From the NCBI GenBank assembly GCA_031364455.1, contig JANLWJ010000542.1, positions 1 to 30,062 of the forward strand: a DNA stretch of 30,062 nt, given 5' to 3'. The notes below the pieces were generated by a model. The model had not been told where the DNA came from. It worked only from the letters and a program-made list of their open reading frames with translations, and did no database searches. Numbering within the stretch: the stretch's first letter is position 1; the number at the start of each line of letters is the position of its first letter. Shown here piece by piece: positions 3,371-16,776 of the stretch. A program made the position numbers and the translations under genes. The DNA is from Actinomycetes bacterium (lineage in GTDB: Bacteria > Actinomycetota > Actinomycetes > JAHEKZ01).

Positions 3371-4525
3371 TCAGGCGCCGCGGCTCTTGCGGAACGGGCC
3401 GACGACCTCAAAGGTGAGCCCCTCGTTGTCGATGCCCCGCTGCGAGCTGAAGTAGAGCCGCGTCCCGTCCGGGCTGAACGCCGTGCCGGTGATCGCGCTT
3501 CCGGTGTGGCCGACCAGCTGCAGGAACGGCGCGGACACCCGACGCCGGGTCGCATCGGCGAGCAGGACCAGCTGCAGGTCGACGTCGTCCTCGGCGACCA
3601 GGATGTCGCCGGACCGCTCATGCACCGTGATGCTGGCCGGGTGATGCAGCGGCGCGTCAGCTCCGACCACGTCGGCGTCGTAGATCACCTCGAGCTCACT
3701 GGTTGCCACGTTCATCGCCCACACCCGTTGGTCGGTGGTGGTCGCGAAGAACAGGTGACCGTCGGAGAACCAGGCGACGTCGCTGCGGTGGAAGCCGGTC
3801 GTCGCGTCACTGCGCTCTGGACGCCGCCCCGAGACCTCGACCCAGTCGACGTGACCGCTGCGTCGCACCTTGGCCGCCTCGAGGATGCCGGTCGACAGGT
3901 CGCCGTACTCGTCAGGACGGAAGCGGTAGACGCGTCCGTCGTAGTCGTCCTCGGTCAGGTAGACCCAGCCGGTGCGCGGGTCGACGGCAGCGGCGCCGTG
4001 CGGGAACGCGCCGACTCCGGGGCGGACGGCACCCTGACCCGGCTTCAGCGGGTCGCACTCCCACACCCGGCCCTGCCCGAACCGCTCACACGACAGCCAG
4101 GTGAACCACGGCGTCGCACCGCCGGCGCTGTTGTCTGGAGTGCCGTCGAGGATCCGGTACGCGTCGACGATGCGGCCATCGGCATTGAAGCGGATCGCCC
4201 CGGCGCCGCCTCCGTGACCGGGCAGGTCGGCGTTGCTCGCGTACACCCAGCCGCCGTCCTTGGTGCGGAAGGTCGCGCCACCGGCCGGCTCACCGTGCCA
4301 CGTGTAGTCGGAGCCGGCGACGAGGCGTCCGGTGCGGCCGATCAGCCGAGCGCGGAAGCCGCCCGGCAGGCGGATGCCGTAGATGTCCGGCTGGCCGAGC
4401 GGGCCATACGGCCCCAGGCCGATGAGGGCCGGCGACGCGAGCGCCCCGCGCCAGAAGTCGATGCCGTATGTGAGCGCGGGGGCCGGCCCGCGGTTCGGGG
4501 TCCGGTAGCGGTCCATGGTGGTCAT
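3371..4525 (-). CDS. PhoX/DUF839-family beta-propeller, probably catalytically inactive
   Basis: GPYGPL, GGATPWxTWLSCE, AVDP..VYLTED and ITGTAFSPDGTRLYFSSQRG match actinobacterial DUF839 proteins. Several expected metal ligands are substituted (see findings). Confidence 0.85.
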   Translation of the reverse strand: MTTMDRYRTPNRGPAPALTYGIDFWRGALASPALIGLGPYGPLGQPDIYGIRLPGGFRARLIGRTGRLVAGSDYTWHGEPAGGATFRTKDGGWVYASNADLPGHGGGAGAIRFNADGRIVDAYRILDGTPDNSAGGATPWFTWLSCERFGQGRVWECDPLKPGQGAVRPGVGAFPHGAAAVDPRTGWVYLTEDDYDGRVYRFRPDEYGDLSTGILEAAKVRRSGHVDWVEVSGRRPERSDATTGFHRSDVAWFSDGHLFFATTTDQRVWAMNVATSELEVIYDADVVGADAPLHHPASITVHERSGDILVAEDDVDLQLVLLADATRRRVSAPFLQLVGHTGSAITGTAFSPDGTRLYFSSQRGIDNEGLTFEVVGPFRKSRGA

Positions 4526-4724: not shown

Positions 4725-6161
4725 GTGGAGTTCGTTGCCCTCATCGCCCGGCTGGCCCTTGTGGGCACCTTTGTCATCTCCGCCGTCGCCAAGATCCGGG
4801 ACGCCGATGGCGCACGGCAGGCCGTCCGAGACTTCGGCGTCCCCGCAGGCATCGCTCCGCTGGTGGCCACCTCGCTGGCGCCACTCGAGCTGGCGTCGGC
4901 CGCCCTGCTGCTGACCACCGACCTCGGCGTCACCGCCGGCGCGCTCCTGGCGCTGGGGCTGCTGGCCGCGTTCACCGCCGGCATCGTCACCAACCTGCTG
5001 CGCGGCAACCGGGTCGACTGCCACTGCTTCGGCGCGATGTCGTCCAAGCCGCTCTCGTGGTGGTCGGTGGCACGCAACAGCGCGATGATGCTGCTGGCTG
5101 CTGTGGCGCTCGCAGGGGGAACGACGCAGGGCTGGCCGTGGCAGGTCGTGAGCGAAACCTTCGAGGGACTCTCCACAGCCCAGACGTGGCTCGCCGTGGG
5201 GCTGATCGCGCTGGCGCTGGTCGTCGTCGTGCTCGCCACTCTCTTCTTCGCGCTGCTGCAGCGCTACGGCGCGCTGCTGCTGCGCCTCGAGGCACTGGAG
5301 TCCTCCCCCGCCGGAGCGCACCACGGCCACGGCCACGCGCACGAGTTCGCCCCGTGGGCGGCGCCCGAGATCGCCGCGGTGGACGCGTCCGACGCCGACC
5401 TGACCCTTGACGACATCGCCGCCGACGACCGCGCCAGCCTCTTCGTCTTCGTTGCCCCGTGGTGCGAGGCGTGCGGCGAGCTCGTCGACGACTTCAAGGC
5501 GTGGCAGGCCGACGAGACCGGCCCCAACGTCGTCGTCCTCAGCGGCGGCGAGCGCGACGCGATCACCGCCAAGTTCGGCCCCGACGTTCGCGTGCTCGCC
5601 CACGACGGCGCGCCCGTCGACGACTACCGCGTCGAGTACACGCCGGGCGCTGTCGTGGTGAGCACCGACCGCATGGTGACCGTCACGCCGTCGTACGGCA
5701 CGGACGACGTGCGCCGCCTCTACAGCGCGCTTGCCGGACGCGAGCCGCAAGACCTGGTGATCGGCCCGCCGCCGGTGCGCGAGGGCGACCCGGCCCCGGA
5801 CGTCATGGTCGAGGTCGACGGTGAGCGGATGCCGATCGCCGCGGCAGCCGGCGACGACGCCGTCCTCCTCTTCTGGGACACCACCTGCGGGTTCTGCCAG
5901 CAGATCGAGGCTGACGTTCTGCGTCGGCAGGAGAGCGTGCCGCTGGTCCTGGTGCTGCGCGGCGACTCCGAGACGAGCGTCCGCGAGGCCGGGTTCACGA
6001 TGCCGGTGGCGCTCGACCCGACGTTCGGCGTCGGCGGGGCACTGCAGGCTCCCGGGACGCCGACCGCCGTCCGGCTGCGCGACGGCGAGATCGCGTCGAC
6101 GGTGGCTGTGGGCGGGCCAGAGGTGCTGAACCTGCTGGCGTCCGTCCGCGTCATGGGCTGA
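4725..6161 (+). CDS. MauE/DoxX membrane domain fused to two thioredoxin-like (TlpA/MauD-like) domains
   Basis: N-terminal helices with F..SAVAK and DCHCFG (MauE-type), His-rich linker HHGHGHAH, then PWCEAC and TTCGFC CxxC motifs, the second preceded by GDPAPD and followed by PGTP. GGAGG upstream of GTG 4725. Confidence 0.85.
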   Translation: MEFVALIARLALVGTFVISAVAKIRDADGARQAVRDFGVPAGIAPLVATSLAPLELASAALLLTTDLGVTAGALLALGLLAAFTAGIVTNLLRGNRVDCHCFGAMSSKPLSWWSVARNSAMMLLAAVALAGGTTQGWPWQVVSETFEGLSTAQTWLAVGLIALALVVVVLATLFFALLQRYGALLLRLEALESSPAGAHHGHGHAHEFAPWAAPEIAAVDASDADLTLDDIAADDRASLFVFVAPWCEACGELVDDFKAWQADETGPNVVVLSGGERDAITAKFGPDVRVLAHDGAPVDDYRVEYTPGAVVVSTDRMVTVTPSYGTDDVRRLYSALAGREPQDLVIGPPPVREGDPAPDVMVEVDGERMPIAAAAGDDAVLLFWDTTCGFCQQIEADVLRRQESVPLVLVLRGDSETSVREAGFTMPVALDPTFGVGGALQAPGTPTAVRLRDGEIASTVAVGGPEVLNLLASVRVMG

Positions 6162-6282
6162 CGCCCACCCTCGCAACGTGTTAGCTGCCTGGGGCTATAC
6201 CCCCAGCGAACGCACACGGTCCTGTCGATCTAGCGCGTGTCGGCGCTGTGCTCCCCTCTGACCCACCGGTCAGGATGAGCAG

Positions 6283-6582
6283 ATGACCGATGAGTGGGAG
6301 GTGCGGCTCACGCTGGCTGTCGAGCCGCCACCGGACGAGGGAACCGTTCACCGGATCGGGACGACGAAGCCGGTGCCGTGGTCGGGCGTTGGCCTGGCTG
6401 AGGGCGTCCAGGGGATCACCCGTCTCGCGCTCAACTTCGTCTCGACGCCGGCCACGCCCGCCCAGGCAGTGGCGCAAGCCTTCGCCAGCGTCGACAGCGC
6501 CCTCGACCAGCACGGCATCGGTCTCGAACGAGTGATCGACGTCGCTGTGGTGTCGGCGACCCGCGACGAGCGGGATTGGTAG
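6283..6582 (+). CDS. Hypothetical protein, 99 aa
   Basis: ATG preceded by AGGA/GAG, GC-rich third positions, mixed strand/helix pattern. No family recognised. Confidence 0.6.
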   Translation: MTDEWEVRLTLAVEPPPDEGTVHRIGTTKPVPWSGVGLAEGVQGITRLALNFVSTPATPAQAVAQAFASVDSALDQHGIGLERVIDVAVVSATRDERDW

Positions 6583-6736
6583 GCGGCCGGATGCCCTGCT
6601 GCGGCGTCCGTTAGCCCGAACGAGTGAGCCACCTCAGTTGATCTTCACCCGAATGGCGGTACGGCGATCCTTGGCGATCCCTCGGCGAAACGTTCCTCTG
6701 CTCAAGCCCGATAGCCCAATTGCCGAAGTTCTCTTC

Positions 6737-7372
6737 GTGGGGCACTGGCTCGACGCTCTGGCCAAGGCGTCGACCGGTCACCGAGCACGTCATCGCACAG
6801 GTGGCTCGGGGACTGAATCACCGCCTGAGTCCGGGCGTCCCGTAGAGATCTCCCCTGCGCCGAAAGCGCAGGGCCTGACTCGTCGCGCCCTGCTCCGCCG
6901 CGGTGCCGTGGTCGGCGCCGTGGTCTGGACGACACCGATCCTTCAGACGGCGCTCGCCCCAGCGGCGTCTGCCAGCCACTGCACCAGCAGCTGCCCCCTC
7001 GGCTCACCCTGCTCCCCGCTCATCTCGTGTCAGGCCGGACTCGTCTGCACCGGCGGGTTCTGCCTGGTGGCCACCGGCAGCGGAGGCTGCACCACGAACG
7101 CCGACTGCGCCAGTGGCGCCTGCTCGGGTGGCACGTGCCTGTCCTGGCCAGGCGCCACCTGTACCGCCAACAGCCAGTGCGCATCCAACAAGTGCGCCGG
7201 AGGCCAGTGCTTCGCCAACGGTCTCAACGGCGCCTGCCGAACGACGACTGACTGCACCGACAACACCACCTGCAGCGCCACCACCCAGACCTGCGGCGGG
7301 GTGGGAGCCGCCTGCGCCAACAACAACAAGTGCACGACCAACAAATGTCAGGGGGGCATCTGCGTTCCGTAG
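6737..7372 (+). CDS. Twin-arginine Cys-repeat precursor A (22 Cys in mature part)
   Basis: Start placed at GTG 6737 because MGHWLDALAK aligns with MSSWLDRWAR of the next gene and GAAGTT lies 6 nt upstream. Contains TRRALL, WTTPILQT, APAASA-S, then five 4-Cys modules. Confidence 0.85.
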   Translation: MGHWLDALAKASTGHRARHRTGGSGTESPPESGRPVEISPAPKAQGLTRRALLRRGAVVGAVVWTTPILQTALAPAASASHCTSSCPLGSPCSPLISCQAGLVCTGGFCLVATGSGGCTTNADCASGACSGGTCLSWPGATCTANSQCASNKCAGGQCFANGLNGACRTTTDCTDNTTCSATTQTCGGVGAACANNNKCTTNKCQGGICVP

Positions 7373-7494
7373 GCGGCCACACAGAGTGACCCACCCCACA
7401 GACAGACGGGTCGTATCGGCTCGACGGCTCGCGCGAAGTGCCCCTTTTCCCCTAGAGTGTGCCCGTCGGCAGTCGCACCTCCCGGGGGTAGCTC

Positions 7495-7881
7495 ATGAGC
7501 AGTTGGCTCGATCGTTGGGCCAGGCGCGCCGCCGAGGCGACGCCTAGTGCTGCTCAGGACGCCGTGGCGCCTTCGCGCCCCGCCCCCGCTGCATCCCGTC
7601 GTGACTTTCTGAAGAAGGCCGGCATTGTCGGCGGCGTCGCCTGGTCGGTACCTGTGCTCCAGACCGTGATGGCCCCGGCGGCGAGTGCGTCGTACGGCAC
7701 AGCGTTGGGTGGCACCTGTACGGGGACCGGCGCATGCAACAACGGACTAGCTAGCTGCTTCAATAATTCCTGCGGATCCGCTGGTGCACCCGTCCCGGGA
7801 GGCTGCCCAAGTGGGGGGCTCTCGGCGACGGGATGCCTTTCGGGCAAGTGCAACAACGGCACTAACCTCTGCAAGCCATAA
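7495..7881 (+). CDS. Twin-arginine Cys-repeat precursor B (8 Cys in mature part)
   Basis: MSSWLDRWAR, SRRDFLKK (strong Tat motif), WSVPVLQT, APAASA-S, two 4-Cys modules. GGGGG upstream of the ATG and TAGAGT at 7453-7458. Confidence 0.88.
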   Translation: MSSWLDRWARRAAEATPSAAQDAVAPSRPAPAASRRDFLKKAGIVGGVAWSVPVLQTVMAPAASASYGTALGGTCTGTGACNNGLASCFNNSCGSAGAPVPGGCPSGGLSATGCLSGKCNNGTNLCKP

Positions 7882-7894
7882 CATCTGAGGGTGG

Positions 7895-7927
7895 ATGTTT
7901 GAGGCCGTGCAAACTGGGACCAAATGA
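7895..7927 (+). other. 10-codon mini-ORF (MFEAVQTGTK*) in frame with and abutting the kinase-RRE ORF
   Basis: GAGG at 7887-7890, ATG 7895, TGA 7925-7927, then TTG 7928 in the same frame. Confidence 0.5.
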
Positions 7928-8863
7928 TTGTCTAGCGATTCGAGCGTCATCAACTCAACGCTCGAATTCATTGTCGGGCGACATGGGCGGCTTCTTCTAC
8001 ATGCCGGTGGCTCAGCAGAGCCGGGCGGGCGTGCGGTAGTTGTACATGGCGCCTCCGGCGCTGGCAAGACAACGCTTACTACTGCCCTCGTCCAGAGCGG
8101 GCACGCCTATATCACCGATGAGACGGTCTGCCTAGATCCCGACACGCTCGTCATTGAGCCCTTCACCAAGCCGCTCACCGTCAAGCCCGGGTCGCAAGAA
8201 CTGCTGGCGCATCTGGCGCCACCGCCCGACGAGGTCTCCGAGGGCAGCGGCAACTGGCAGCTCCCACCGGAACGCTTGGGCGGTCCAGCGCTTCCCGACA
8301 CCGCGCTGCGGCCGGCCGTCATCGTGTTCCCGGACGTCGACCCGGATCGCACCGATGTCGAGGCCACACCGGTCTCCCCCGCTCGCGCTGCCTTCGTGCT
8401 CGGCGAGCAGTCGAGCGCGATGTGGGCGATCGAGCCGCGTCCGTTGGCGGCGATCGCCCGGCTCGTCACCGCGGTCCCTGCCTTCCGGGTCTTCTACGGG
8501 AACGCATTCGACGCAGCACCGGTGATCATCAACGAGCTCATGGACGCTGCCCCACCCGACGGGCTCGAGCCGCCCTCCAACCTTCCCCAGCCCGCCCCCA
8601 CCGGAACCGCCGGGCCACGACGCGCCGACGGCGTCGACTGGATCCTGCTCGCAGGCGAAGCCGTTCTCTTTGACGGCGAACACCTGCACCATCTCGACGG
8701 CCCCGGCGCGGCCATCTGGCTCGCCCTCGACGGGGAGCTCGGCCTTCCGGGCGTCGCCGCGGAGCTCGCCGACCACTATGGCGCCGACGCCGACCACGTC
8801 CTGCTCGACGTCGAGGACCTCGTGCGCGTCCTCACCGCACGAAAGCTGATCACCCACCCCTGA
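7928..8863 (+). CDS. HPr-kinase-related P-loop protein fused to a C-terminal PqqD/RRE domain
   Basis: LLLHAG, GASGAGKTT (Walker A), YITDE, PFTKPL. The last ~85 aa follow the PqqD pattern (VLFD..LHHLDGPGAAIWLALDG..VAAELADHYG..DVEDLVRVL). N-terminus is unusually short and the start is uncertain. Confidence 0.82.
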   Translation: MSSDSSVINSTLEFIVGRHGRLLLHAGGSAEPGGRAVVVHGASGAGKTTLTTALVQSGHAYITDETVCLDPDTLVIEPFTKPLTVKPGSQELLAHLAPPPDEVSEGSGNWQLPPERLGGPALPDTALRPAVIVFPDVDPDRTDVEATPVSPARAAFVLGEQSSAMWAIEPRPLAAIARLVTAVPAFRVFYGNAFDAAPVIINELMDAAPPDGLEPPSNLPQPAPTGTAGPRRADGVDWILLAGEAVLFDGEHLHHLDGPGAAIWLALDGELGLPGVAAELADHYGADADHVLLDVEDLVRVLTARKLITHP

Positions 8864-8874
8864 TCGAGGCCTGC

Positions 8875-8921
8875 GATTGGAACCTAGGGGGTTCCTGGTG
8901 CCCCTTAGGTTCCAATCACGG
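8875..8921. repeat. Palindrome copy A (17-bp arms, 9-nt centre)
   Basis: GATTGGAACCTAGGGGG-ttcctggtg-CCCCTTAGGTTCCAATC-acgg; arms are reverse complements with one G/T mismatch. Related to 16730-16776. Confidence 0.85.
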
Positions 8922-9017
8922 CGGGTCCGCACCACCCGGCTGGCGGATGCCACCGGGGCTCGGCGTCCGCGATCCTTGATTGGTTGGGGACCAGTCGATG
9001 TGTAGGGGGACAGGATC

Positions 9018-10421
9018 GTGGGGGGACGTCGTTGGCGCGCGCTCGCGGCGTCCGCCTGTGCCGCGATGGCGCTGCTCGTGCTGCAGCCCACCACCGCCAG
9101 CGCGGTCGCTGACACGACACCGCCGAACCCGCCAACGATCACCGGGCCGAGCGGCCGCGTCGCATCGACGAGCGCCGACATCTCGGTGACGCGGGCTGAC
9201 CCATCCGACACCGTGCTGTGCTTTGCCGACGGCATCGAGGTGAATTGCCCCGGCTCGTGGACGATCAACGGCCTCGACGAAGGTGCGCACACCGTCACAG
9301 CCACCTCCTACGACGCCGCCATGAACGAGTCCGCCACGGTGTACGTCTACTGGGTGGTCGACTCCATCGGGCCGGTCGGCACGACGATCGCGCCGAGCGG
9401 ACTCACGACGAATGCCACCGTCAGCTTCAACGAGATCGTTGCCGGTGTCTCTGCATCGTCTGTCCGACTGGTTACGGACGCAGGGAGCGCGGTACCGGCA
9501 AGCAGATCTTGTGTGACCAACACTCTCGAGGCGACACCCTGCGGCAGCGCGAGCGTGCGCAAGGTGCTCCTCAAGCCAGACGCAGGCTGGGTTCTCGGTG
9601 AGCGATACCGAATTCTCGTGAACCCGGTGGGCGCAGCGACTGTCGCCGACGACCTCGGCAACATCGCCGCCGCAACGAACTCCGCGTTTCGCGTGCAGAC
9701 CTGGACCGAAGAGCTCGGTGCCACCTACACCTGGCGCAAAGTCACCAACGACAAGGCACGAGGTGGTTCGTACCTGGTCGAGCGACGCCAGGGAGCGAGC
9801 GCGACCTGGTCGTTCAGCGGCGGATCACTGACGTGGGTAACCATGACCGGCCCGGCACTCGGAAAGGCCGAGCTCTACGTCGACGACACGCTCCGCGGTA
9901 CGTACAACAACTACAGCGAGCGCGTGCGGTTTGGTGTCGAGCGATCGCTGACCGGTCTTGGTGCCGGGCAACACGTCGTCGAGGTGCGCGCGCTCGGCAA
10001 GAAGGGCGCCCGTGCCGGGACGGGAACGCTCGTTGCCGTGGACGGCTTTGTCACGGCCAGTGGCAGTGATGTCGCTCCGGTGGTCGCGCAGACGTGGCAG
10101 CGCACCGACAACGCGAACGCGTCCAACGGCTACTACTCCATCGCCGACCTCGGCAGCCAGACGGCGTCGCTTACGTTCCGCGGCACAGCCGTAACGCTTC
10201 ACACCGCTGTTGGTCCGCGGTTCGGCGAGGTGGCGCTCTTCGTCGACGGCGAGCTGGCCAAGACCGTGGACCTCTACGCGCCGGCGGTGGCGTTCGGCGA
10301 GCAGGTGACGGTCTCCGGCCTATCCGATGCCCGCCACACCCTCGAGTTACGCGTCCTGGGTTCGAGCGCAGCTGCGTCCGCCGGGACAGGTGTCGTGGTC
10401 GATCGCATCAGTGTCGGGTGA
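9018..10421 (+). CDS. Secreted modular protein: Ig-like domains plus two jelly-roll (carbohydrate-binding-like) repeats
   Basis: Signal peptide ending TTASA. DTTPP..P.IT and L.EGAHTVTATSYDAAMN.S (bacterial Ig-like). FNE.V..V...L...YRILV (SbsA-type Ig). Two repeats of A.LTF.G..V....GP..G...LYVDG.....L....H.LE.RVLG. Confidence 0.8.
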   Translation: MGGRRWRALAASACAAMALLVLQPTTASAVADTTPPNPPTITGPSGRVASTSADISVTRADPSDTVLCFADGIEVNCPGSWTINGLDEGAHTVTATSYDAAMNESATVYVYWVVDSIGPVGTTIAPSGLTTNATVSFNEIVAGVSASSVRLVTDAGSAVPASRSCVTNTLEATPCGSASVRKVLLKPDAGWVLGERYRILVNPVGAATVADDLGNIAAATNSAFRVQTWTEELGATYTWRKVTNDKARGGSYLVERRQGASATWSFSGGSLTWVTMTGPALGKAELYVDDTLRGTYNNYSERVRFGVERSLTGLGAGQHVVEVRALGKKGARAGTGTLVAVDGFVTASGSDVAPVVAQTWQRTDNANASNGYYSIADLGSQTASLTFRGTAVTLHTAVGPRFGEVALFVDGELAKTVDLYAPAVAFGEQVTVSGLSDARHTLELRVLGSSAAASAGTGVVVDRISVG

Positions 10422-10490
10422 CTCCTAACCACACGCACTCGAAGCCCCACAACGTCAACCGGCTGTGCACTCGCCGCGCTCGGGAGCGCG

Positions 10491-12545
10491 TCAGCCCAGA
10501 CGGTCGGGGTCGGCCGCAGGGAGGATGTTGCCACCGAGGTCGGCCACTTGGACCTCCTCGTACGGAGCGGTCAATGGGTCAAGAGATGCACGCGGCGCCG
10601 TGAGCGGGTCGAAGGCGGGTCGCGGGGCTGGTGGCGTCCATGCCACGCCGGCCGGCGAGAACTCCTCGCCCACCGGCACTTCATCGACAGCAGTAAGCGG
10701 CACATCGTCGTCGAGGCCGAAGCGCGCGCCCGAAGCGGTATCGGACGGCAAGAGATCAACCTTTGGAAGACGGTGGCCGTACGGCGAGATCGCGTCGGCG
10801 AGCGGGACCCCGGCCGAGCCGCCGATCACCTTGTCCTCGGCAGGCACGACGGTTGAGAGCACCGGAGCGTCGCTCTTGGTCTCCTGCTTGCCCTCGCGGG
10901 CGACGGTGCTCGAAGAGACTGACACCGTCGGTGCGTCGGACGCGTGCACGGTTGCGGACGCCGCCGAACGCGGCGCGGGTTCTGGCGCGGGTTCACGCGC
11001 GGGGGCTGGCGCTGGCGCATCGGCGTCCTTGCCACCAGCGCCGTTCTTGACGGGGTCCACTTTCCCCACCGGGAAGGTCGGCGTCGGCGAACCATTTACA
11101 CCGGGCAACCCGCCGAAACCAGCGGGGATGACCGGTGCGTGGTCCTCGTACTTCCCGCGCGTCTCGGTTGCGCTGTAGTCGTACTGGTAGCCGTAGCCAT
11201 AGCGGTGCGAGTCCGGCCCGCGTGCTGGCGCCATGTTCATGACAAGGCCAAGGATCTTGCCGCCCACCGCCTCAACGCTGCTGACGGCCGTACGCAACTG
11301 CTCGCGGCGCGTCTTGCCTGTCGCAATCACCATCAACGCACCGCCCGCGAGTCGGGTCAGGACAGCGGCGTCAGTCACTGGCAGCAACGGAGGCGCGTCA
11401 ATGATCAGCGTCGCACGCTTCTCGAGGTGGTGAACGAGGTCAGACATCGCCTGGCTGCCGAGCAGCTCCGACGGGTTCGGCGGCAGTGGGCCGGATGCCA
11501 TAACCCAAAAGTTGCCGGTGGCGCCCCACGGCTGCAGCACGTCGTCAACGGTGGCGCGTCCGACGAGGACGTCGGTGAGGCCGGCGCCACCTTCGATGTT
11601 GAGATAGTCGGCGATCTTCGGGCGCCGCAGGTCTGCCTCGATCAGGAAGACCGGCTGACCGGTCTGTGCGATGGTGAGGGCGAGGTTGATCGCCGTCGTC
11701 GTCTTGCCTTCGCGCGGTACCGCACTGGTGATGACGATCGACTTCGGACGGTGGTCGATGTCGACGAACTGCAGGTTGGTGCGCACCTGCCGGAACGACT
11801 CCGCGCGCTTGCTCTGGCCCTGGACGTCGGTGAGCAGCGGTTTCTTCTCTGCGTCCGCCTCGTAGCCGATGACACCGAGTAGCGGCTGATCGAAGTGCTT
11901 GGCCAACGCATCGATCGACTTGAGGCGAGTGTCGAGGGTCTCCAGCAGCACCGCAGCACCGACACCAACTGCCAGGCCGACCAGAAAGCCAAGGGCCAGG
12001 TTGATCATCGTGCGCGGCGAGGACGGTGATGTGGGAAGCGAAGCCGGCTGAGTCGTCTTGATGGTGACCAGGGGGTCTCCACCCGCTGCCGGCACTTCAA
12101 GTTTGGCGACCTCAGCCCCCAGCTGCGCGGCCGTCGAGTTCGCGATCGACTGTGCGAGCGCCGGATTTGGGTCGGTGGCCGAAATCTCCAGTGTCACCGT
12201 GTCGAGCGGGTTGTTAACCTCGATCTGGCCGGCCAGCTGGCTCAGTGACTGCGGCAGCCCGAGGTCTTCCTTGACAGCACCCATGACGCCGTCAGCCGTG
12301 ACGACGTCCACGTAGGACTTCACCCGCTGCTGGGCGAAGTACGAACCGGTGAGTGCTTCACCAACGGCCGAGCCGCCACCTTCGGTGCTGCCGCCATTGA
12401 CCGAGACGAAGGTCGTCGCCGTGGCGGTGTACATCGGAGTGGCCAGCATCGAGGCGAGCGCTGCCGCCATGAGACCGAGGAGAGTGGTCGCCGTAATCAG
12501 GCGCCAACGAGCCCGAAGGATGTCTATGTAGTCCCGCAGATCCAC
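10491..12545 (-). CDS. wzc: Wzc-type polysaccharide co-polymerase / tyrosine autokinase with long Pro/Ala-rich tail
   Basis: Start moved to GTG 12545 (MDLRDYIDILRARW, GGAAGG upstream). Wzz-type N-terminus with two TM helices, ESFRQVRTNL, SAVPREGKTT, EADLRRP, IDAPP and Tyr cluster YGYGYQYDY. Confidence 0.92.
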   Translation of the reverse strand: MDLRDYIDILRARWRLITATTLLGLMAAALASMLATPMYTATATTFVSVNGGSTEGGGSAVGEALTGSYFAQQRVKSYVDVVTADGVMGAVKEDLGLPQSLSQLAGQIEVNNPLDTVTLEISATDPNPALAQSIANSTAAQLGAEVAKLEVPAAGGDPLVTIKTTQPASLPTSPSSPRTMINLALGFLVGLAVGVGAAVLLETLDTRLKSIDALAKHFDQPLLGVIGYEADAEKKPLLTDVQGQSKRAESFRQVRTNLQFVDIDHRPKSIVITSAVPREGKTTTAINLALTIAQTGQPVFLIEADLRRPKIADYLNIEGGAGLTDVLVGRATVDDVLQPWGATGNFWVMASGPLPPNPSELLGSQAMSDLVHHLEKRATLIIDAPPLLPVTDAAVLTRLAGGALMVIATGKTRREQLRTAVSSVEAVGGKILGLVMNMAPARGPDSHRYGYGYQYDYSATETRGKYEDHAPVIPAGFGGLPGVNGSPTPTFPVGKVDPVKNGAGGKDADAPAPAPAREPAPEPAPRSAASATVHASDAPTVSVSSSTVAREGKQETKSDAPVLSTVVPAEDKVIGGSAGVPLADAISPYGHRLPKVDLLPSDTASGARFGLDDDVPLTAVDEVPVGEEFSPAGVAWTPPAPRPAFDPLTAPRASLDPLTAPYEEVQVADLGGNILPAADPDRLG

Positions 12546-12581
12546 AGCGAGTGACCTTCCGGTTGCAGAGCGCCTCGACCC

Positions 12582-12607
12582 CTCTCGGCGCGGGGACGCG
12601 CCGAGAG
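12582..12607. promoter_or_regulatory. Perfect 11-bp stem-loop upstream of wzc
   Basis: CTCTCGGCGCG-ggga-CGCGCCGAGAG, 36 nt upstream of the wzc GTG. Function inferred only. Confidence 0.5.
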
Positions 12608-12680
12608 CACATGCAAGAGCGCCACCGCCGAAATCGGGGGCTCCCCCACCATGATGGCCTATGAACGCCAAAATTGGGAT

Positions 12681-13028
12681 GTGACGCGTGTGACAGAAGT
12701 GACGACTGGGACGTCACCGCGCTTCCGACGTCCGGAATGGGTCGCTCACGTGCTCGACGAGGCGGCCGAACCGCCCCGCGCTGTGCTGCTGCACCTGCCC
12801 TCTGGACGCCGGATCGGCCTCTCCGACACGGCCACCCGGGTCTGGCAAGAGATCGTCGCCTCCGGGGCCGAAGGCGTCCAAGTGGGTGTCATCACCGCCA
12901 ATGTGGCTCCTGAGTACGGGGTGGACCCTACGATCATCACTCACGACGTCGTCGCCCTGCTGGACGACATGGTCGCAGGCGAATGGGTCGAAATGGTTCA
13001 CGAGCACGAGGGGGGTGGGCAAGGATGA
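12681..13028 (+). CDS. Stand-alone PqqD/RRE-family protein
   Basis: AVLLHL.SG..IGLSDTATRVWQEI..ITANVAPEYGV..IITHDVVALLDDM..GEWV fits the PqqD/RRE pattern. Start uncertain (12651-12699). Stop overlaps the next ATG (ATGA). Confidence 0.8.
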   Translation: MTRVTEVTTGTSPRFRRPEWVAHVLDEAAEPPRAVLLHLPSGRRIGLSDTATRVWQEIVASGAEGVQVGVITANVAPEYGVDPTIITHDVVALLDDMVAGEWVEMVHEHEGGGQG

Positions 13029-13996
13029 GTCGCGGAGTCGTTACCGGTGGCATCGTCGGGGTGCTCGCCTTGGGCACCACGCTCCTTGTGGTGCTGGCCC
13101 TGCACCCGGCCCAGGTCGACGTTCCCCCCGTCGCGCCGTTCGAGATCGGGGCGGTCGCCGCCTACGGTGACACCGTCTGGCGGTGGGTCGGCCCCACCGA
13201 CTGCAACGCCGACGCCGACGTCGTCCAGCTGGAACGCAGTGTGGGCGGTGGCGACTGGATCGACAGCGCGATCCCGCTCTCCAACATCTTCGCCATCTCG
13301 TTCGCCGACGACCAACGCGGCCTGGCGACCGGGAACACCAGTGAGTGCGCCCGCGGAGTCGCCGTCACCACAACCGGCGGCCGCATCTGGAAGTACCGCC
13401 AGGACAACCCCGTCCTGCTCGACGCCTGGTTCCAGGGCAGCACCATCTGGGGCATCGAGCGGGTGATCGGTCAACCGGTGCTGGCGGCCTACAAGCTGGA
13501 CAGCCGCCTACGGCTGCGGCCGGTCCCTGGCATCGAACCGATCCAACCCTGCGACGCGTCCGACGGTGTCCCCGACCAGATCGCCTACTGGAACGACACC
13601 ACCGGGCTGCTCTTCTGCGAGAACGACGTCGTGGGGTCGCGCCTAGTCGCGCGCACCACCAACCAGGGCGAGAACTTCGAGCGGCTCGCTGACGACCGCC
13701 CAGCGACCGGCCTCGACGGCGGCGGGTCGGTGCTCGACATGGATGTCACCGGCACCGAGACCGTGTGGCTGCAGATCACCGCCGAGGCCGGATGCAGCGA
13801 GGGCCAGCTGCGGGTGAGCGACAGCCAGGGGGCGGTCTTTGCCCGGCTGCCGTGCCCGTCGAAGTCGGTGGAGATCAGCGAGGTCCTCGATGTGGCGTTC
13901 ACCAACGAGACCGACGGAGTCATGCTCGCCCTGCTCAACCGTGAGCCAGTGATGTACGTGACCAACGACGGCGGCGCCTCCTGGAGCACCAACTAG
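13025..13996 (+). CDS. Membrane-anchored Asp-box (BNR)/YCF48-like beta-propeller
   Basis: ATG 13025 overlaps the upstream stop. One N-terminal TM helix. Asp-box-like TTTGGRIW, TTNQGENF, SDSQGAVF, TNDGGASW, plus ISFADDQRG and VAFTNETDG. Six Cys. Confidence 0.75.
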   Translation: MSRGVVTGGIVGVLALGTTLLVVLALHPAQVDVPPVAPFEIGAVAAYGDTVWRWVGPTDCNADADVVQLERSVGGGDWIDSAIPLSNIFAISFADDQRGLATGNTSECARGVAVTTTGGRIWKYRQDNPVLLDAWFQGSTIWGIERVIGQPVLAAYKLDSRLRLRPVPGIEPIQPCDASDGVPDQIAYWNDTTGLLFCENDVVGSRLVARTTNQGENFERLADDRPATGLDGGGSVLDMDVTGTETVWLQITAEAGCSEGQLRVSDSQGAVFARLPCPSKSVEISEVLDVAFTNETDGVMLALLNREPVMYVTNDGGASWSTN

Positions 13997-14004
13997 CCCC
14001 TCGG

Positions 14005-14063
14005 TGAAAACTTACCCAGCGTTTCGAGCGCTGTGCGGCACCGAAAGGGCGGGTAAGTCTTCA
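14005..14063. repeat. Long-loop inverted repeat between convergent genes (possible terminator or REP-like element)
   Basis: TGAAAACTTACCC (14005-14017) and GGGTAAGTCTTCA (14051-14063), 12 of 13 complementary, 33-nt spacer. Confidence 0.55.
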
Positions 14064-14144
14064 GGACGCCAGCGCGGACGCCACCGAACGGAGCTCGCCC
14101 CGGGCGCGAACCATCACCTCACGTGGAGCGAGAAAGGAACAGGG

Positions 14145-14753
14145 TCAGTGCGAGCTGCGGCGACGCCGAGTGGCGATCACCAGCAGGAAGCCTGCACCGA
14201 GCAGAACCGCTGCCACCAGAACAGTTCCGGCGATCTCGCCACCGGTACGCGGCAGGCCGCCACCGAGGAACGGGACGCCGCCAACTGCATTGGCGTCGTC
14301 ACCTGAGCCGTGGCCGGAACCGTTCTCGCCGTTGCCGCCGTCATTGACTGGGACGACATTGTCGCCCACAGCGGTGACCGTCACGTCCGCCGAAAGGGAG
14401 AGGTCTTCGCCTGTGTCGGAGGTGCCCGACATGGTCACGCGGTTGACACCGGCAACGGTGAAGGTGACCCTGCTGGTTGCGATGCCCTTCTTGTTGGCGG
14501 TCGCGCTCGAGGTTCCGACCGACTCGCCGCCTTCACTGACGTCGACGGCCACGGCAGAGCCGGAGCTGAAGGTCTGTGCGGTAAACGTTACGGAGCCGCC
14601 GACCTTGGCATTGAACGAGGTCGCGGTGATCTGGTAAAAGACCGGCGGATAGTCGGTCTCGGCGTTCGCCGGAGCCATCCCCATCGGCATCGCCAGGACA
14701 GCAAAAATCGCCGCAAGAGACATACCGCGACGCAGTGTCTTGGTGCCGAACAC
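14145..14753 (-). CDS. Small sortase-anchored (LPXTG) surface protein
   Basis: Start moved to GTG 14753 (ATG 14723 is an alternative). Signal peptide ending APANA, one Ig-like beta domain, Gly/Asn linker, then LPRTG, hydrophobic helix and RRRR tail. Confidence 0.88.
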   Translation of the reverse strand: MFGTKTLRRGMSLAAIFAVLAMPMGMAPANAETDYPPVFYQITATSFNAKVGGSVTFTAQTFSSGSAVAVDVSEGGESVGTSSATANKKGIATSRVTFTVAGVNRVTMSGTSDTGEDLSLSADVTVTAVGDNVVPVNDGGNGENGSGHGSGDDANAVGGVPFLGGGLPRTGGEIAGTVLVAAVLLGAGFLLVIATRRRRSSH

Positions 14754-14884
14754 TCCGCACCCCCATCGTTTGCCAGACCCGGTGCAGTACGCCCCGAGCA
14801 CTCGTAACGTTCGCGCGAGGCCAGCCAAAAAGCCGGACCCGTGCATCGACTCGCCCAGCCTAGCGGCATATGGGCCGTTTGCGG

Positions 14885-16669
14885 CTAGTCGGCGCTGCAC
14901 GTCCTGGTGTCGGCATCCCGGGTGATGGGCTTGACCAGGGGCGTCACGAAAGTGGTGATCTCCCCTTCGGTGGGCGGTTCGGCCACCTCGAAGACCAGCG
15001 TCGTCGACTCGCCCGCCCCCAGCTCGATTCCAGACTGGAAGACGGCGTGCCCCTGCTCCCTTCCCTGGGCAACGTCCAACAACTCGCCGTCCCGTATCGC
15101 GCTGACCAGGGACGATCCTGCGGTGGCGTACACCTGAGAGTAGAAGAAGCTGTCGCCGTTCCCGTTCTGCAACTGCCCGTCCGGTCTCGGTGGCAGGTCT
15201 GCCCTGGCGGCGACGTAGAGCGGCAGGCTGTCATCGCCGGGGGCGCTGTTCTGGTAGGTCACCGTGATCTGCCCGCGCCGCCCGCCGTCCGCCGTGCACC
15301 CGATCAGCTCGTAGGTCAGTGACTGGTAGAGGTAGTAGTCGAGCTTGTTGCCGCCCCCGTTGATTGTGGCCAGCCCGGCGAAGGGCGCCGCGTCCCCCGG
15401 CAGTGCCCCGCCCACCGAGGACGCCGCCAGCTGCTTCTGCTCATTCACCTGATCGGAGTACACCAGCAGCCGGCGCTCCCCGGCCGCCTTGCCCAGGGCG
15501 TCGATCAGCGCCTTCGGGTCTGCCTCCCCCGAAAAGACGGCGTCCAGCGAAGCCTGAGCCACCGTCTGCAGGTACGCGTCCCGCTCGGCGTCATCGTCGA
15601 TCAGGAAGTAGATCTCGTTCTCGGTGAACGAGACGACGTTCTCGGACGAGATCACCCGCCCGTCCGGCAGCGTTACCGGCCCAGTGGCCTCCAGCAGGTA
15701 CGACAGCGTGACCGGGTCTGTGGTGACCACGCCGTCGAGGCGCTCACCGGTGCGGTCCTGCCACATCTTCAGCCACAGCTGGGCGGCATAGGGGTAGTGC
15801 GGCGACATGTTGGCGCCGGCCCACGTGGCCGGGTCGTCGCCGTAGAGGGCGTAGTAGTCGGGGCCGAAGTCGAGCGGCAGCTCGTCGTACTGCTGATCGT
15901 CGAGCGTCGAGCGCGGCGCCAGCTGCCGCACGTCGACGCGTCCGTCATCGGCGGTGATGACGCCGAACGAGCCGAAGAAGCCACCAGTTCCGCGCGCCTC
16001 GTTGTTCGACTGCAGCGCCAGGAAGTAGCTGCGCCGACCGTCGGCGCCCATCATCGGCGGGATCAGCTTCGCGCCGCGGACCGCAGACTGCGTCTCGGCC
16101 AGCGCGTCGTCCAGCTCGGTCTGCAGACCGCTTACGGCGTCCTGCACCTTCGCAGGCGTGCCGTCGGTCTCGATGCCGGCGACGTCGGCGGTGATCGCTC
16201 CCAGGGACGCCTCCGCCGACTCAAGGGCCGGAGCCGCCTGCTCGAACGCGTCGAGGTTGAGCTGATCGCCCGCGGCGCGCAGCGAGTCGGGAGTGAGCGC
16301 GGTTCCGGCCGCGACGAGATCGGGCAAGGCGTCCTGCGCGAGCGCGTCGGCGGCATCGGCAACTTCGCTGACCGCCGCCGGCGTTGCCCCGATCACCGGG
16401 ATGGCCGACGCGATGGTGAAGACCAGGTCGCTGGTGGCGTCGGCCGCGCGGGAGGTATCGCCCTGGACAACGGCCAGGTGCTGGGCGGCGTCGTCGGTGC
16501 GGCCGTCCGCGAGGTCTTCGCGCACCAGCGTGACGCCGGCGCGGGCACTGGTGAGCGCATCAGCGGCCTGCTGCCCCTTGACGTAGATCCAGACTGCACC
16601 GACCACGAGCACGGCAACCATGACCACCAAGAGGAGCAGAAGTCGGGAGCGGCGCGTCACACGTCCCAT
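14885..16669 (-). CDS. DUF4012 domain membrane-anchored protein
   Basis: Start ATG 16669. N-terminal TM helix, long amphipathic helices, LQSNNEARGTGG, ANMSPHYP, DGVVTTDPVTLSYLLEATGPV, NKLDYY. Confidence 0.88.
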   Translation of the reverse strand: MGRVTRRSRLLLLLVVMVAVLVVGAVWIYVKGQQAADALTSARAGVTLVREDLADGRTDDAAQHLAVVQGDTSRAADATSDLVFTIASAIPVIGATPAAVSEVADAADALAQDALPDLVAAGTALTPDSLRAAGDQLNLDAFEQAAPALESAEASLGAITADVAGIETDGTPAKVQDAVSGLQTELDDALAETQSAVRGAKLIPPMMGADGRRSYFLALQSNNEARGTGGFFGSFGVITADDGRVDVRQLAPRSTLDDQQYDELPLDFGPDYYALYGDDPATWAGANMSPHYPYAAQLWLKMWQDRTGERLDGVVTTDPVTLSYLLEATGPVTLPDGRVISSENVVSFTENEIYFLIDDDAERDAYLQTVAQASLDAVFSGEADPKALIDALGKAAGERRLLVYSDQVNEQKQLAASSVGGALPGDAAPFAGLATINGGGNKLDYYLYQSLTYELIGCTADGGRRGQITVTYQNSAPGDDSLPLYVAARADLPPRPDGQLQNGNGDSFFYSQVYATAGSSLVSAIRDGELLDVAQGREQGHAVFQSGIELGAGESTTLVFEVAEPPTEGEITTFVTPLVKPITRDADTRTCSAD

Positions 16670-16729
16670 CGTCGCATCCGACGAACGGCGCACGGTGCAC
16701 CCCCGCAGCAACACCCAGCCAGCCGCTGT

Positions 16730-16776
16730 GTTGGGAATCTAGGGGGGACTAGGGGCCCCCTAGATTCCGATCACGG
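16730..16776. repeat. Palindrome copy B (13-bp perfect arms, 9-nt centre)
   Basis: GGAATCTAGGGGG-gactagggg-CCCCCTAGATTCC-gatcacgg between divergent genes. Aligns without gaps to 8875-8921. Confidence 0.85.

Follow-up and report, generated by a model that had tools for sequence, protein, structure and literature searches.

The locus lies on contig JANLWJ010000542.1 of assembly GCA_031364455.1, from an uncultured actinobacterium (host genome of 3.0 Mb, 97.7% complete). The window, that is, the whole stretch of 30,062 nucleotides analyzed here, had been described in an earlier note, and third-position GC and profile searches validated every gene named there as real and correctly placed. The note had also spoken of a co-oriented run. 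This description stood for the first six genes (plus strand, 4725-10421) but not for the Wzc, LPXTG and DUF4012 genes, which are on the minus strand; a second RRE and a propeller gene lie on the plus strand. The first gene encodes MauE fused to two thioredoxin-like domains (4725-6161, plus strand; PF07291, E 5e-27; Thioredoxin_2, AhpC-TSA and a weak MauD match), which we propose to catalyze, outside the cytoplasm, disulfide formation in the Cys-rich cores described below. Wherever the sequence of a related locus extends that far, as it does in seven, this gene adjoins the precursor genes. The second gene (6283-6582, plus strand) encodes a 99-aa cytoplasmic protein that matched no Pfam or NCBIfam family, gave a DUF6204-like lead in the Atlas (0.89) and is kept at 66-90% identity in five related loci.

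Two Cys-rich precursors follow. CysA (6737-7372, plus strand) has 211 aa when read from the GTG at 6737, in a frame open from 6638, and carries 22 Cys past its leader in a core of five 4-Cys modules. From its N-terminal GHWLDALAKA, it continues with a twin-arginine pair (6881-6886), the motif WTTPILQT (6926-6949) and APAASA, after which comes Ser80 (6974-6976); the arginine pair, W64, P67 and S80 are invariant among 20 homologues. AlphaFold modeled the core with pLDDT values of 81-97 and left the leader disordered, and a fold search returned knottin-like or Dickkopf-like matches, all weak. CysB (7495-7881, plus strand; 128 aa, core with 8 Cys) shows the same order of elements: SRRDFLKK with its twin-arginine pair (7597-7602), WSVPVLQT (7642-7665), and APAASA followed by Ser66 (7690-7692). 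What the two proteins have in common is a leader consisting of a twin-arginine signal that contains W-x-x-P-x-[LV]-Q-[ST]. Lasso-type RREs bind [Y/W]xxPx[L/V/I], and the CysA/CysB motif matches this pattern. A search of the 3.0 Mb genome for the full leader pattern turned up CysA and CysB alone, both encoded about 1 kb or less upstream of the kinase-RRE gene. The leaders have the twin-arginine motif, the uncharged hydrophobic region and the AxA site of a Tat substrate, the CysB signal scored above the TIGR01409 cut-off (19.6 against 16.7 bits), and TatC is encoded in the host genome. Judging from these features, the Cys-rich proteins are apparently exported by Tat.

The next gene (7928-8863, plus strand) fuses an HprK-like P-loop kinase (residues ~1-215) to a PqqD-type RRE (residues ~238-311; PF05402, E 2e-9, above cut-off). 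For the kinase part, the best-scoring named family was TIGR04352, HprK-related kinase A (E 5e-20; the match spans positions 93-276 of the 280 in the profile), but its score of 71.7 bits did not reach the full-model cut-off of 200 bits; there was also a weak NCBIfam match to the phosphonate kinase FomB. In Gram-negative bacteria, kinases of TIGR04352 have been described from exopolysaccharide (PEP-CTERM) loci, together with a partner of the PqqD family. The AlphaFold model of the fusion (pLDDT 94.6, pTM 0.91) placed the N-terminal part in the PEPCK and HprK/P fold by Foldseek and the C-terminal part with complexes of a lasso-type RRE, TbiB1, and its leader peptide (TM 0.76-0.83, rmsd ~2 Å). Residues H25, G46, K47, T49 and D64 are invariant in 32 homologues. 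The kinase is without the ~110-residue N-terminal domain found in full-length relatives; gene decay was considered as a reason and rejected, because the short form is kept in the relatives whose frames were read. A second, stand-alone PqqD-type RRE (12651-13028, plus strand; PF05402, E 7e-9) shows no detectable BLASTP similarity to the fused one, and no PqqD domain besides these two was found genome-wide.

The sixth gene (9018-10421, plus strand) encodes a 467-aa protein of the Sec-secreted type. It had been called a secreted binding protein; secretion stood, whereas binding is putative, the only family match being a weak one to CE2_N. The gene is a variable accessory: it was found in three related loci (in one with further partial matches downstream), its position is taken by a third Cys-rich precursor gene in two others, and a further locus has there a Cys-rich precursor gene together with a 40-residue remnant of the 467-aa protein. 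About 100 nt 5′ of this gene is a palindrome with 17-nt arms and a 9-nt loop (8875-8917), of which a second copy lies at 16728-16774 and only three copies exist genome-wide. A Wzc-like chain-length determinant/tyrosine autokinase follows on the minus strand (10491-12671; Wzz PF02706, E 6e-10; TIGR01007, E 7e-45, above cut-off), syntenic in seven of nine related loci; the remaining two sequences reach the contig end before or inside the gene. The second RRE is followed by a membrane-anchored BNR/Ycf48-like beta-propeller (12983 or 13025 to 13996, plus strand; weak PSII_BNR match; BNR/Ycf48 clusters in the Atlas, 0.96), which likely starts at the ATG at 13025, overlapping the RRE stop codon. These two genes are syntenic in seven related loci, and propeller homologues were not found in distant kinase loci with this query. 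An LPRTG sortase-anchored surface protein (14145-14900, minus strand; TIGR01167, 18.0 bits, cut-off 15.9) overlaps the end of the gene for a membrane-anchored DUF4012 protein (14885-16714, minus strand; PF13196, E 1.5e-42). In agreement with the earlier note, profile searches found no radical SAM enzyme, YcaO, lanthionine synthetase, lasso cyclase or B2 protease among the window genes.

Synteny of the entire block extends to nine related genomes of the same genus and family, non-independent observations as they are, and the gene arrangement is therefore not due to chance. Related loci carry two to four precursor genes where the sequence is not ended early by a contig end. Farther afield, a survey of 401 genomes of the class found the leader (E <= 1e-7) in 46 and the kinase in 96; 42 of the 46 had both, and in at least 35 of these 42 a leader and a kinase match shared a contig and lay no more than ~6 kb apart. 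An RRE domain was found in the analyzed stretch of 36 out of 48 kinase loci from Actinomycetota, nearly always fused to the kinase or within ~1 kb of it. Many of these 48 loci have a DegT gene, an O-antigen-type membrane protein, a Wzc-like gene or DUF4012, homologues of which were located close to the kinase in six distant loci. NTP_transf_5 homologues were present in 25 of the 48, confirmed by PF14907 for one locus. The proposed co-occurrence of kinase-RRE, leader-sharing Tat proteins and exopolysaccharide genes thus recurs across many actinobacterial families, and the core of the RRE/kinase interpretation is supported by comparative genomics. The two other traits did not generalize: the cores of distant relatives hold 0-12 Cys, and a MauE gene was found in only two distant loci, most having none inside 10 kb. 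On this comparison, the MauE-thioredoxin fusion and the 4-Cys repeats appear specific to this lineage.

The leader family comprises at least 421 clusters at 50% identity (E <= 1e-10), in which conserved leaders precede hypervariable cores; one leader-bearing cargo is a folded CarboxypepD_reg domain. In an alignment of 30 genes from 19 loci, the arginine pair, the Trp and the Pro of the leader are invariant. The Cys count is even in 136 of the 145 best representatives. A Ser or Thr stands at W+16 or W+17 in 125 of the 142 best representatives, against 31% expected from core composition, a count biased somewhat because these columns formed part of the search profile. A conserved Ser/Thr and then a Pro directly behind the signal peptidase site could have other causes.

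Overall, on balance we favor, by a modest degree of confidence, the view that the locus is a leader-guided protein modification cassette, similar in its logic to the linear polyphosphorylated peptides (LPP) and adapted to Tat export. We infer the binding of the leader by the RRE, the phosphorylation and its site, the dependence on Tat, disulfide formation by MauE-thioredoxin and the destination of the product. CysA and CysB would be made in the cytoplasm, with a long leader that is a Tat signal carrying W-x-x-P-x-[LV]-Q-[ST] in its hydrophobic region. The kinase-fused RRE would dock on this motif and so keep the precursor in place at the HprK-like active site; the signal would probably be hidden from the Tat translocase meanwhile, and the kinase would then phosphorylate a Ser or Thr of the precursor. 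As acceptor, the strongest candidate is the conserved Ser that follows the Trp by 16-17 residues. Counted from the predicted AxA cleavage site, it holds core position 1-3, which is equivalent to that of the phosphorylated Ser3 of LppA. Once let go, the precursor would cross the membrane by Tat, and ordinary signal peptidase I would cleave it. In this lineage, MauE-thioredoxin may make the disulfides of the 4-Cys repeats outside the membrane, by analogy with MauE/MauD and MauA, and the product may be retained in the cell envelope or in the exopolysaccharide layer built by the adjacent Wzc, DUF4012 and LPXTG genes. A bolder version, which we regard as rather doubtful, would have the Tat signal double as a RiPP-type leader, export delayed until a Ser or Thr beside the later N-terminus is phosphorylated, a sugar-phosphate or glycan be attached to the phosphate, and the whole form a widespread unrecognized class of exported proteins modified under leader guidance. 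Attachment through NTP_transf_5 and the exopolysaccharide enzymes of distant relatives would then yield small disulfide-locked protein-glycan conjugates of the actinobacterial envelope.

The kinase might instead act on a sugar, a lipid carrier or the exopolysaccharide machinery, with the Tat proteins being matrix or envelope proteins and not substrates. Exopolysaccharide genes do lie widely alongside the kinase, the weak FomB match is compatible with such a target, and 54 kinase-positive genomes of the class survey are without the leader family. Leader genes were found inside 10 kb in 20 of the 48 kinase loci, with about half showing none, so the kinase family is not tied everywhere to leader substrates. 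We nevertheless consider this reading unlikely for the present locus, given the RRE fused to or beside the kinase in three quarters of the loci (36/48), the encoding of the genome's sole RRE-motif proteins directly upstream of the kinase, and the leader genes lying within ~6 kb of the kinase in so many genomes (at least 35).

A further unlikely alternative is that the fused RRE-kinase is an export chaperone that binds the Tat signal, as TorD, DmsD and NapD do, with ATP gating release and no covalent change. The position of the RRE-type motif within the hydrophobic region of the Tat signal speaks for it, since RRE binding there would necessarily be in competition with Tat recognition, and so does the absence of the N-terminal domain that the relatives of the kinase possess. 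However, the P-loop Lys and the following Asp are invariant, with a spacing that presumably agrees with that of L. casei HprK/P, and a Ser/Thr is conserved beside the cleavage site. Moreover, the characterized homologues in an RRE context, LppK and the paeninodin kinases, are true peptide kinases (PMC13381572).

The same modification could also serve secreted, disulfide-knotted antimicrobial or signaling peptides, in which case the capsule context would be uninformative on function. The cores are hypervariable and multi-copy like bacteriocin families, single modules weakly resemble knottin toxins, and the phyletic patterns of LPP and paeninodin suggest conflict systems. Against this, no immunity gene and no dedicated exporter were identified, the exopolysaccharide context recurs in two phyla (including PMC13381572), and the CarboxypepD_reg cargo is a folded domain; we hold this idea to be improbable. 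That the genes are adjacent by chance, and that the common leader is merely a lineage-specific Tat signal, is hardly credible in view of the synteny, the exclusivity of the leader and the counts of co-located kinase, leader and RRE.

If the modification-cassette reading is true, RRE-guided modification would extend from short ABC-exported peptides to Tat-exported proteins, and one signal peptide would be recognized by two systems, one after the other. The recently reported phosphorylated-peptide systems of Bacillota would reach Actinomycetota, again in exopolysaccharide loci, and because of this recurrence in two phyla, a role of the phosphorylated products in capsules or biofilms becomes directly testable. 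The tools offered are a large natural substrate family, a compact test system of two genes, kinase-RRE and a single precursor, and an acceptor residue that stands out clearly as a candidate.

Several known systems share parts of this arrangement. MauE and MauD are required for MauA, the Tat-exported, Cys-rich small subunit of methylamine dehydrogenase, and here too MauE and a thioredoxin-like partner stand beside a small Cys-rich protein with a Tat signal. In contrast to the Mau system, the MauE and thioredoxin domains are fused, the putative substrates are repeat proteins, and no amine dehydrogenase subunits or MauG occur among the window genes. The proposed binding of a Tat signal by a cytoplasmic protein before export recalls TorD, DmsD and NapD by analogy only, since those proteins have unrelated folds and oversee the loading of cofactors rather than the modification of peptides. 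The Ser that is phosphorylated in paeninodin is a C-terminal one. Paeninodin-type phosphorylated lasso peptides have an HprK-like kinase, a discrete RRE and a WxxP leader (Zhu et al. 2016, cited in PMC13381572), and the present locus resembles them in the kinase, the RRE and the leader motif. It differs in that the window genes include neither an Asn-synthetase-like lasso cyclase nor a B2 transglutaminase-type protease, with zero matches to PF13471 (B2 protease) across the whole genome, and in that its products are proteins of 70-300 residues and not lariat peptides.

The closest comparison is with LPP (LppA/K/B/S/D/N) of Bacillota, which combine an HprK-like kinase with an RRE and a YxxP leader inside capsule loci; LppA has a Tyr at -16, is cut by a signal-peptidase-type enzyme and is phosphorylated on core Ser3, and the authors call LPPs Bacillota-restricted (Popov et al., Nat Commun 2026, PMC13381572). 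The claim of the earlier note that no named RiPP class fits is therefore outdated, as LPP share the logic of kinase, RRE and [Y/W]xxP leader in capsule loci (PMC13381572). The locus lacks three of the five core genes of LPP: a SipW-like signal peptidase I (TIGR02228) was absent from the window, with sub-threshold genome matches on other contigs; the NTP transferase PF14907 (NTP_transf_5), present in distant actinobacterial loci, had no match in the 97.7% complete host genome; and no MsbA-like ABC exporter was found among the window genes, the precursors carrying a Tat signal instead. The locus has the RRE fold in fused form, joined to a kinase without its N-terminal domain; the second RRE (12651-13028) is discrete. 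The leader is a twin-arginine signal with Trp in place of the Tyr preferred by LppB, and the cores are disulfide-rich with a MauE-thioredoxin partner. In common with LPP, the locus has an HprK-like kinase (TIGR04352 match, PEPCK and HprK/P fold, invariant P-loop and Asp) and one to three precursor genes in a capsule/exopolysaccharide setting. The precursors, of 35-200 aa, have a conserved N-terminus with [Y/W]xxPx[V/L] and a variable C-terminus, with an aromatic residue 15-16 positions ahead of the cleavage site, predicted leader removal of the signal-peptidase type and a Ser at about core position 3. Compared at the level of genes and motifs, the locus is similar to LPP in its predicted working, yet is not a member of that class, and it seems to be an actinobacterial relative, undescribed until now, of the phosphorylated peptides of Bacillota.

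The window belongs to a 30-kb contig of a 3.0-Mb actinobacterial MAG (97.7% complete, 569 contigs), and its G+C content is 65-73%. Real frames were chosen by third-position GC and named by profile searches, and all genes named in the earlier note were found in this way. On the plus strand, a MauE protein fused to two thioredoxin-like domains (4725-6161) is followed by a 99-aa ORF without a family match (6283-6582), two Cys-rich precursor genes, CysA (6737-7372; 22 Cys past the leader) and CysB (7495-7881; 8 Cys), a fusion of an HprK-like kinase with a PqqD-type RRE (kinase-RRE, 7928-8863) and a secreted 467-aa protein (9018-10421). The proposed co-oriented run holds for these six genes only, since the Wzc-like autokinase (10491-12671), the LPRTG protein (14145-14900) and the DUF4012 protein (14885-16714) are encoded on the minus strand. 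A second, stand-alone PqqD (RRE2, 12651-13028) and a BNR/Ycf48-like propeller translationally coupled to it (end at 13996) lie on the plus strand. In line with the earlier note, profile searches detected no classical RiPP enzyme within the window. A palindrome, GGAAYCTAGGGGG-N9-CCCCYTAGRTTCC, has only three copies in the genome: two in the window (8875-8917 and 16728-16774), both approximately 100 nt upstream of genes for Sec-type secreted proteins (starts 9018 and 16884), and one near position 1296 of contig C59 of the same genome (G000). It may act as an operator or terminator.

The leader common to CysA and CysB consists of a WLDxxA[KR] stretch at the N-terminus, a twin-arginine motif, a hydrophobic region holding W-x-x-P-x-L-Q-T, and APAASA followed by Ser. 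CysB passes a curated Tat-signal model in a profile search, and TatC was found in the same genome, in which the full leader pattern occurs only in CysA and CysB. Across 30 aligned leaders from 19 loci, the RR, W and P residues are invariant, as is the Ser after ASA in 20 CysA homologues. No paper on an RRE paired with a twin-arginine signal came up in literature searches. Our first, loose leader pattern gave many false matches in high-GC six-frame translations and was dropped; it was superseded by a stricter pattern and then by a profile. When 1.84 billion cluster representatives were searched with this profile, 421 matched at E <= 1e-10. At E <= 1e-3 there were 3338 matches, and the weakest among these are probably generic Tat signals.

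The best 150 matches are proteins of 53-359 aa, and the leader lies near the N-terminus in nearly all of them. The cores of the family are mutually unrelated and include 4-Cys repeats (in the lineage of the window), 8-Cys CC-containing domains, Cys-free Ser/Thr/Gly-rich tails and one CarboxypepD_reg domain, a cargo in Motilibacter that gave the only Pfam or NCBIfam match among the precursor cores. The Cys count is even in 136 of 145 of the best representatives, which fits the formation of extracytoplasmic disulfides. Past the WxxP motif, the consensus of the best representatives reads P-A-[FAY]-A and then [AQ]-[GST]-[ST]-P. In 125 of 142 of these proteins, a Ser or Thr is found at W+16 or W+17, compared with 31% expected from core composition, a count that is somewhat inflated because both columns belonged to the search profile. 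In the AlphaFold model of CysA, the core is confidently predicted as a string of small disulfide modules, and the leader is disordered. A fold search with this model returned only weak, local knottin-like or Dickkopf-like matches, from which no function follows.

Among named families, HprK-related kinase A fits the kinase best (E 5e-20), with a match that lies under the model cut-off and spans only the C-terminal two thirds of the model; no paper on this family was found by name in literature searches. Pfam PF27840.1 is precomputed on many kinase-RRE homologues (P0004, P0014, P0016 and others), and its name may already describe this kinase family. A sequence search of PDB chains with kinase-RRE yielded insignificant matches only (P-loop, HprK and PqqD), and a fold search was needed. 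The AlphaFold model, built from 32 sequences, is confident (pLDDT 94.6, pTM 0.91). In its N-terminal part, the model agrees with the PEPCK and HprK/P fold, and its C-terminal part superposes at about 2 A (TM 0.76-0.83) on TbiB1, a lasso-peptide RRE whose structure was solved with its leader peptides. Within the kinase family, the His before the P-loop, G46, K47 and T49 of the P-loop and the following Asp are invariant. An in-frame TGA precedes the kinase, and we considered a recent truncation. This reading was rejected: the protein starts approximately 20 residues before LLLH[AS]GG both in the window and in three of the four relatives with frames read, and the short N-terminus is no lesion of the strain in the window. 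In the fourth relative, the kinase frame diverges upstream of the P-loop. More distant kinase homologues have a separate RRE and, in addition, a further domain of about 110 residues. The genome of the window encodes only two PqqD domains, both in this locus; BLASTP detected no similarity between RRE2 and the fused RRE, and RRE2 is therefore not a recent duplicate.

When one genome per species was scanned, 48 loci with a related kinase emerged in uncultured Actinomycetota, Microthrixaceae, Jiangellaceae, Motilibacter, Arthrobacter, Flexivirga, Terrabacter and others. In 36 of these loci, the fetched stretch holds an RRE domain, often two; in nearly all cases it is joined to the kinase in a fusion or lies no more than about 1 kb away. 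One to four Tat/WxxP-leader genes lie within 10 kb of the kinase in 20 of the 48 loci, and looser motif scans of the leader-less loci revealed no alternative precursors. Among cultured carriers, Motilibacter deserti has a leader gene close to its kinase; in Arthrobacter sp. EpRS71, Flexivirga and Terrabacter the survey detected the kinase alone. A homologue of NTP_transf_5 occurs in 25 of the 48 (PF14907 confirmed in one case), and a DegT aminotransferase, an O-antigen-type membrane protein, a Wzc-like gene or DUF4012 in many. Among 401 genomes sampled evenly across the class, 46 matched the leader profile (E <= 1e-7) and 96 the kinase profile; the kinase tally includes an unpublished genome (G054) for that single count only. 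The kinase is present in 42 of the 46 leader-bearing genomes, and in at least 35 of these 42 a leader lies on the same contig within about 6 kb of a kinase match, usually within approximately 2 kb. Related genomes are not independent, and co-occurrence is therefore given as counts without a statistical test.

Two further features were observed in distant loci. In several of these loci, a leader-bearing gene has as its direct neighbour the gene for a secreted protein of 555-572 aa that resembles zinc metalloproteases and contains HExxH and a Pro/Thr-rich linker (L031:14701-16368, L034:12826-14544 and homologues in L056, L064 and L065). This candidate enzyme for extracellular processing has no homologue in the window. 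At L034:10912-12039, the RRE downstream of the kinase forms the N-terminus of a 376-aa protein, the other approximately 290 residues of which have no Pfam match.

Synteny extends across the entire MauE-to-DUF4012 block in nine genomes from this genus and family. At the family level, the cassette is accompanied by RRE2 with the propeller, by Wzc, by the LPXTG protein and by DUF4012. Each related locus that is not cut by a contig end holds two to four precursor genes, and another precursor gene sometimes takes the place of the 467-aa protein. A PhoX-like beta-propeller gene (window 3371-4525, minus strand) flanks the locus on the left in four relatives (G010, G007, G001 and G005). We rejected presence and absence within the genus as evidence of a single accessory unit. 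DUF4012 and/or GcvT matches are cut short, some at a contig end, in three of the five same-genus "negative" MAGs examined; the locus in these three is thus probably not absent but interrupted in the assembly, and the apparent absences in some same-genus MAGs are at least partly of this kind. In long-read MAGs with few contigs (loci L024-L028; genomes G007, G001, G016, G017 and G005), several locus genes are broken into pieces in two or three frames, each piece retaining high identity, and these look like assembly indel errors rather than pseudogenes.

At a distance, the kinase, the RRE, the Tat/WxxP leader and the DUF4012 and Wzc-like genes recur. A MauE-thioredoxin homologue occurs in just two distant kinase loci (L042 and L068). 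The propeller of the window, used as a query, found no homologue in the distant loci. The MauE-thioredoxin fusion goes together with the very Cys-rich cores found in the lineage of the window. MauE and MauD act on MauA, and the role proposed for the fusion on the Cys-rich cores rests on analogy with this pair.

The closest comparison is with the linear polyphosphorylated peptides (LPPs) of Bacillota, whose clusters lie inside capsular polysaccharide loci (Popov et al. 2026, PMC13381572). LPP precursors are 35-200 aa long, with a conserved YxxPxVL... N-terminus and variable C-termini; the Tyr is at -16, the cut falls after T-1 and phosphate is placed on core Ser3 (PMC13381572). The authors termed LPPs and paeninodins Bacillota-restricted (PMC13381572). 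The locus in the window shares with LPP systems the kinase, an RRE fold, the leader logic, the geometry and the genomic setting. As to geometry, its Trp precedes the predicted AxA cut by 15-16 residues, and the conserved Ser stands 1-3 residues past the cut. However, three defining features of LPP systems are missing, as neither a SipW-type peptidase above the cut-off nor NTP_transf_5 was found in the genome of the window and no ABC exporter was seen; a Tat signal stands in their place. Because the kinase, RRE fold, leader logic, geometry and setting are shared but these three features are absent, we file the locus as one that would work like an LPP system without being a member. It is possibly the founding example of an actinobacterial branch.
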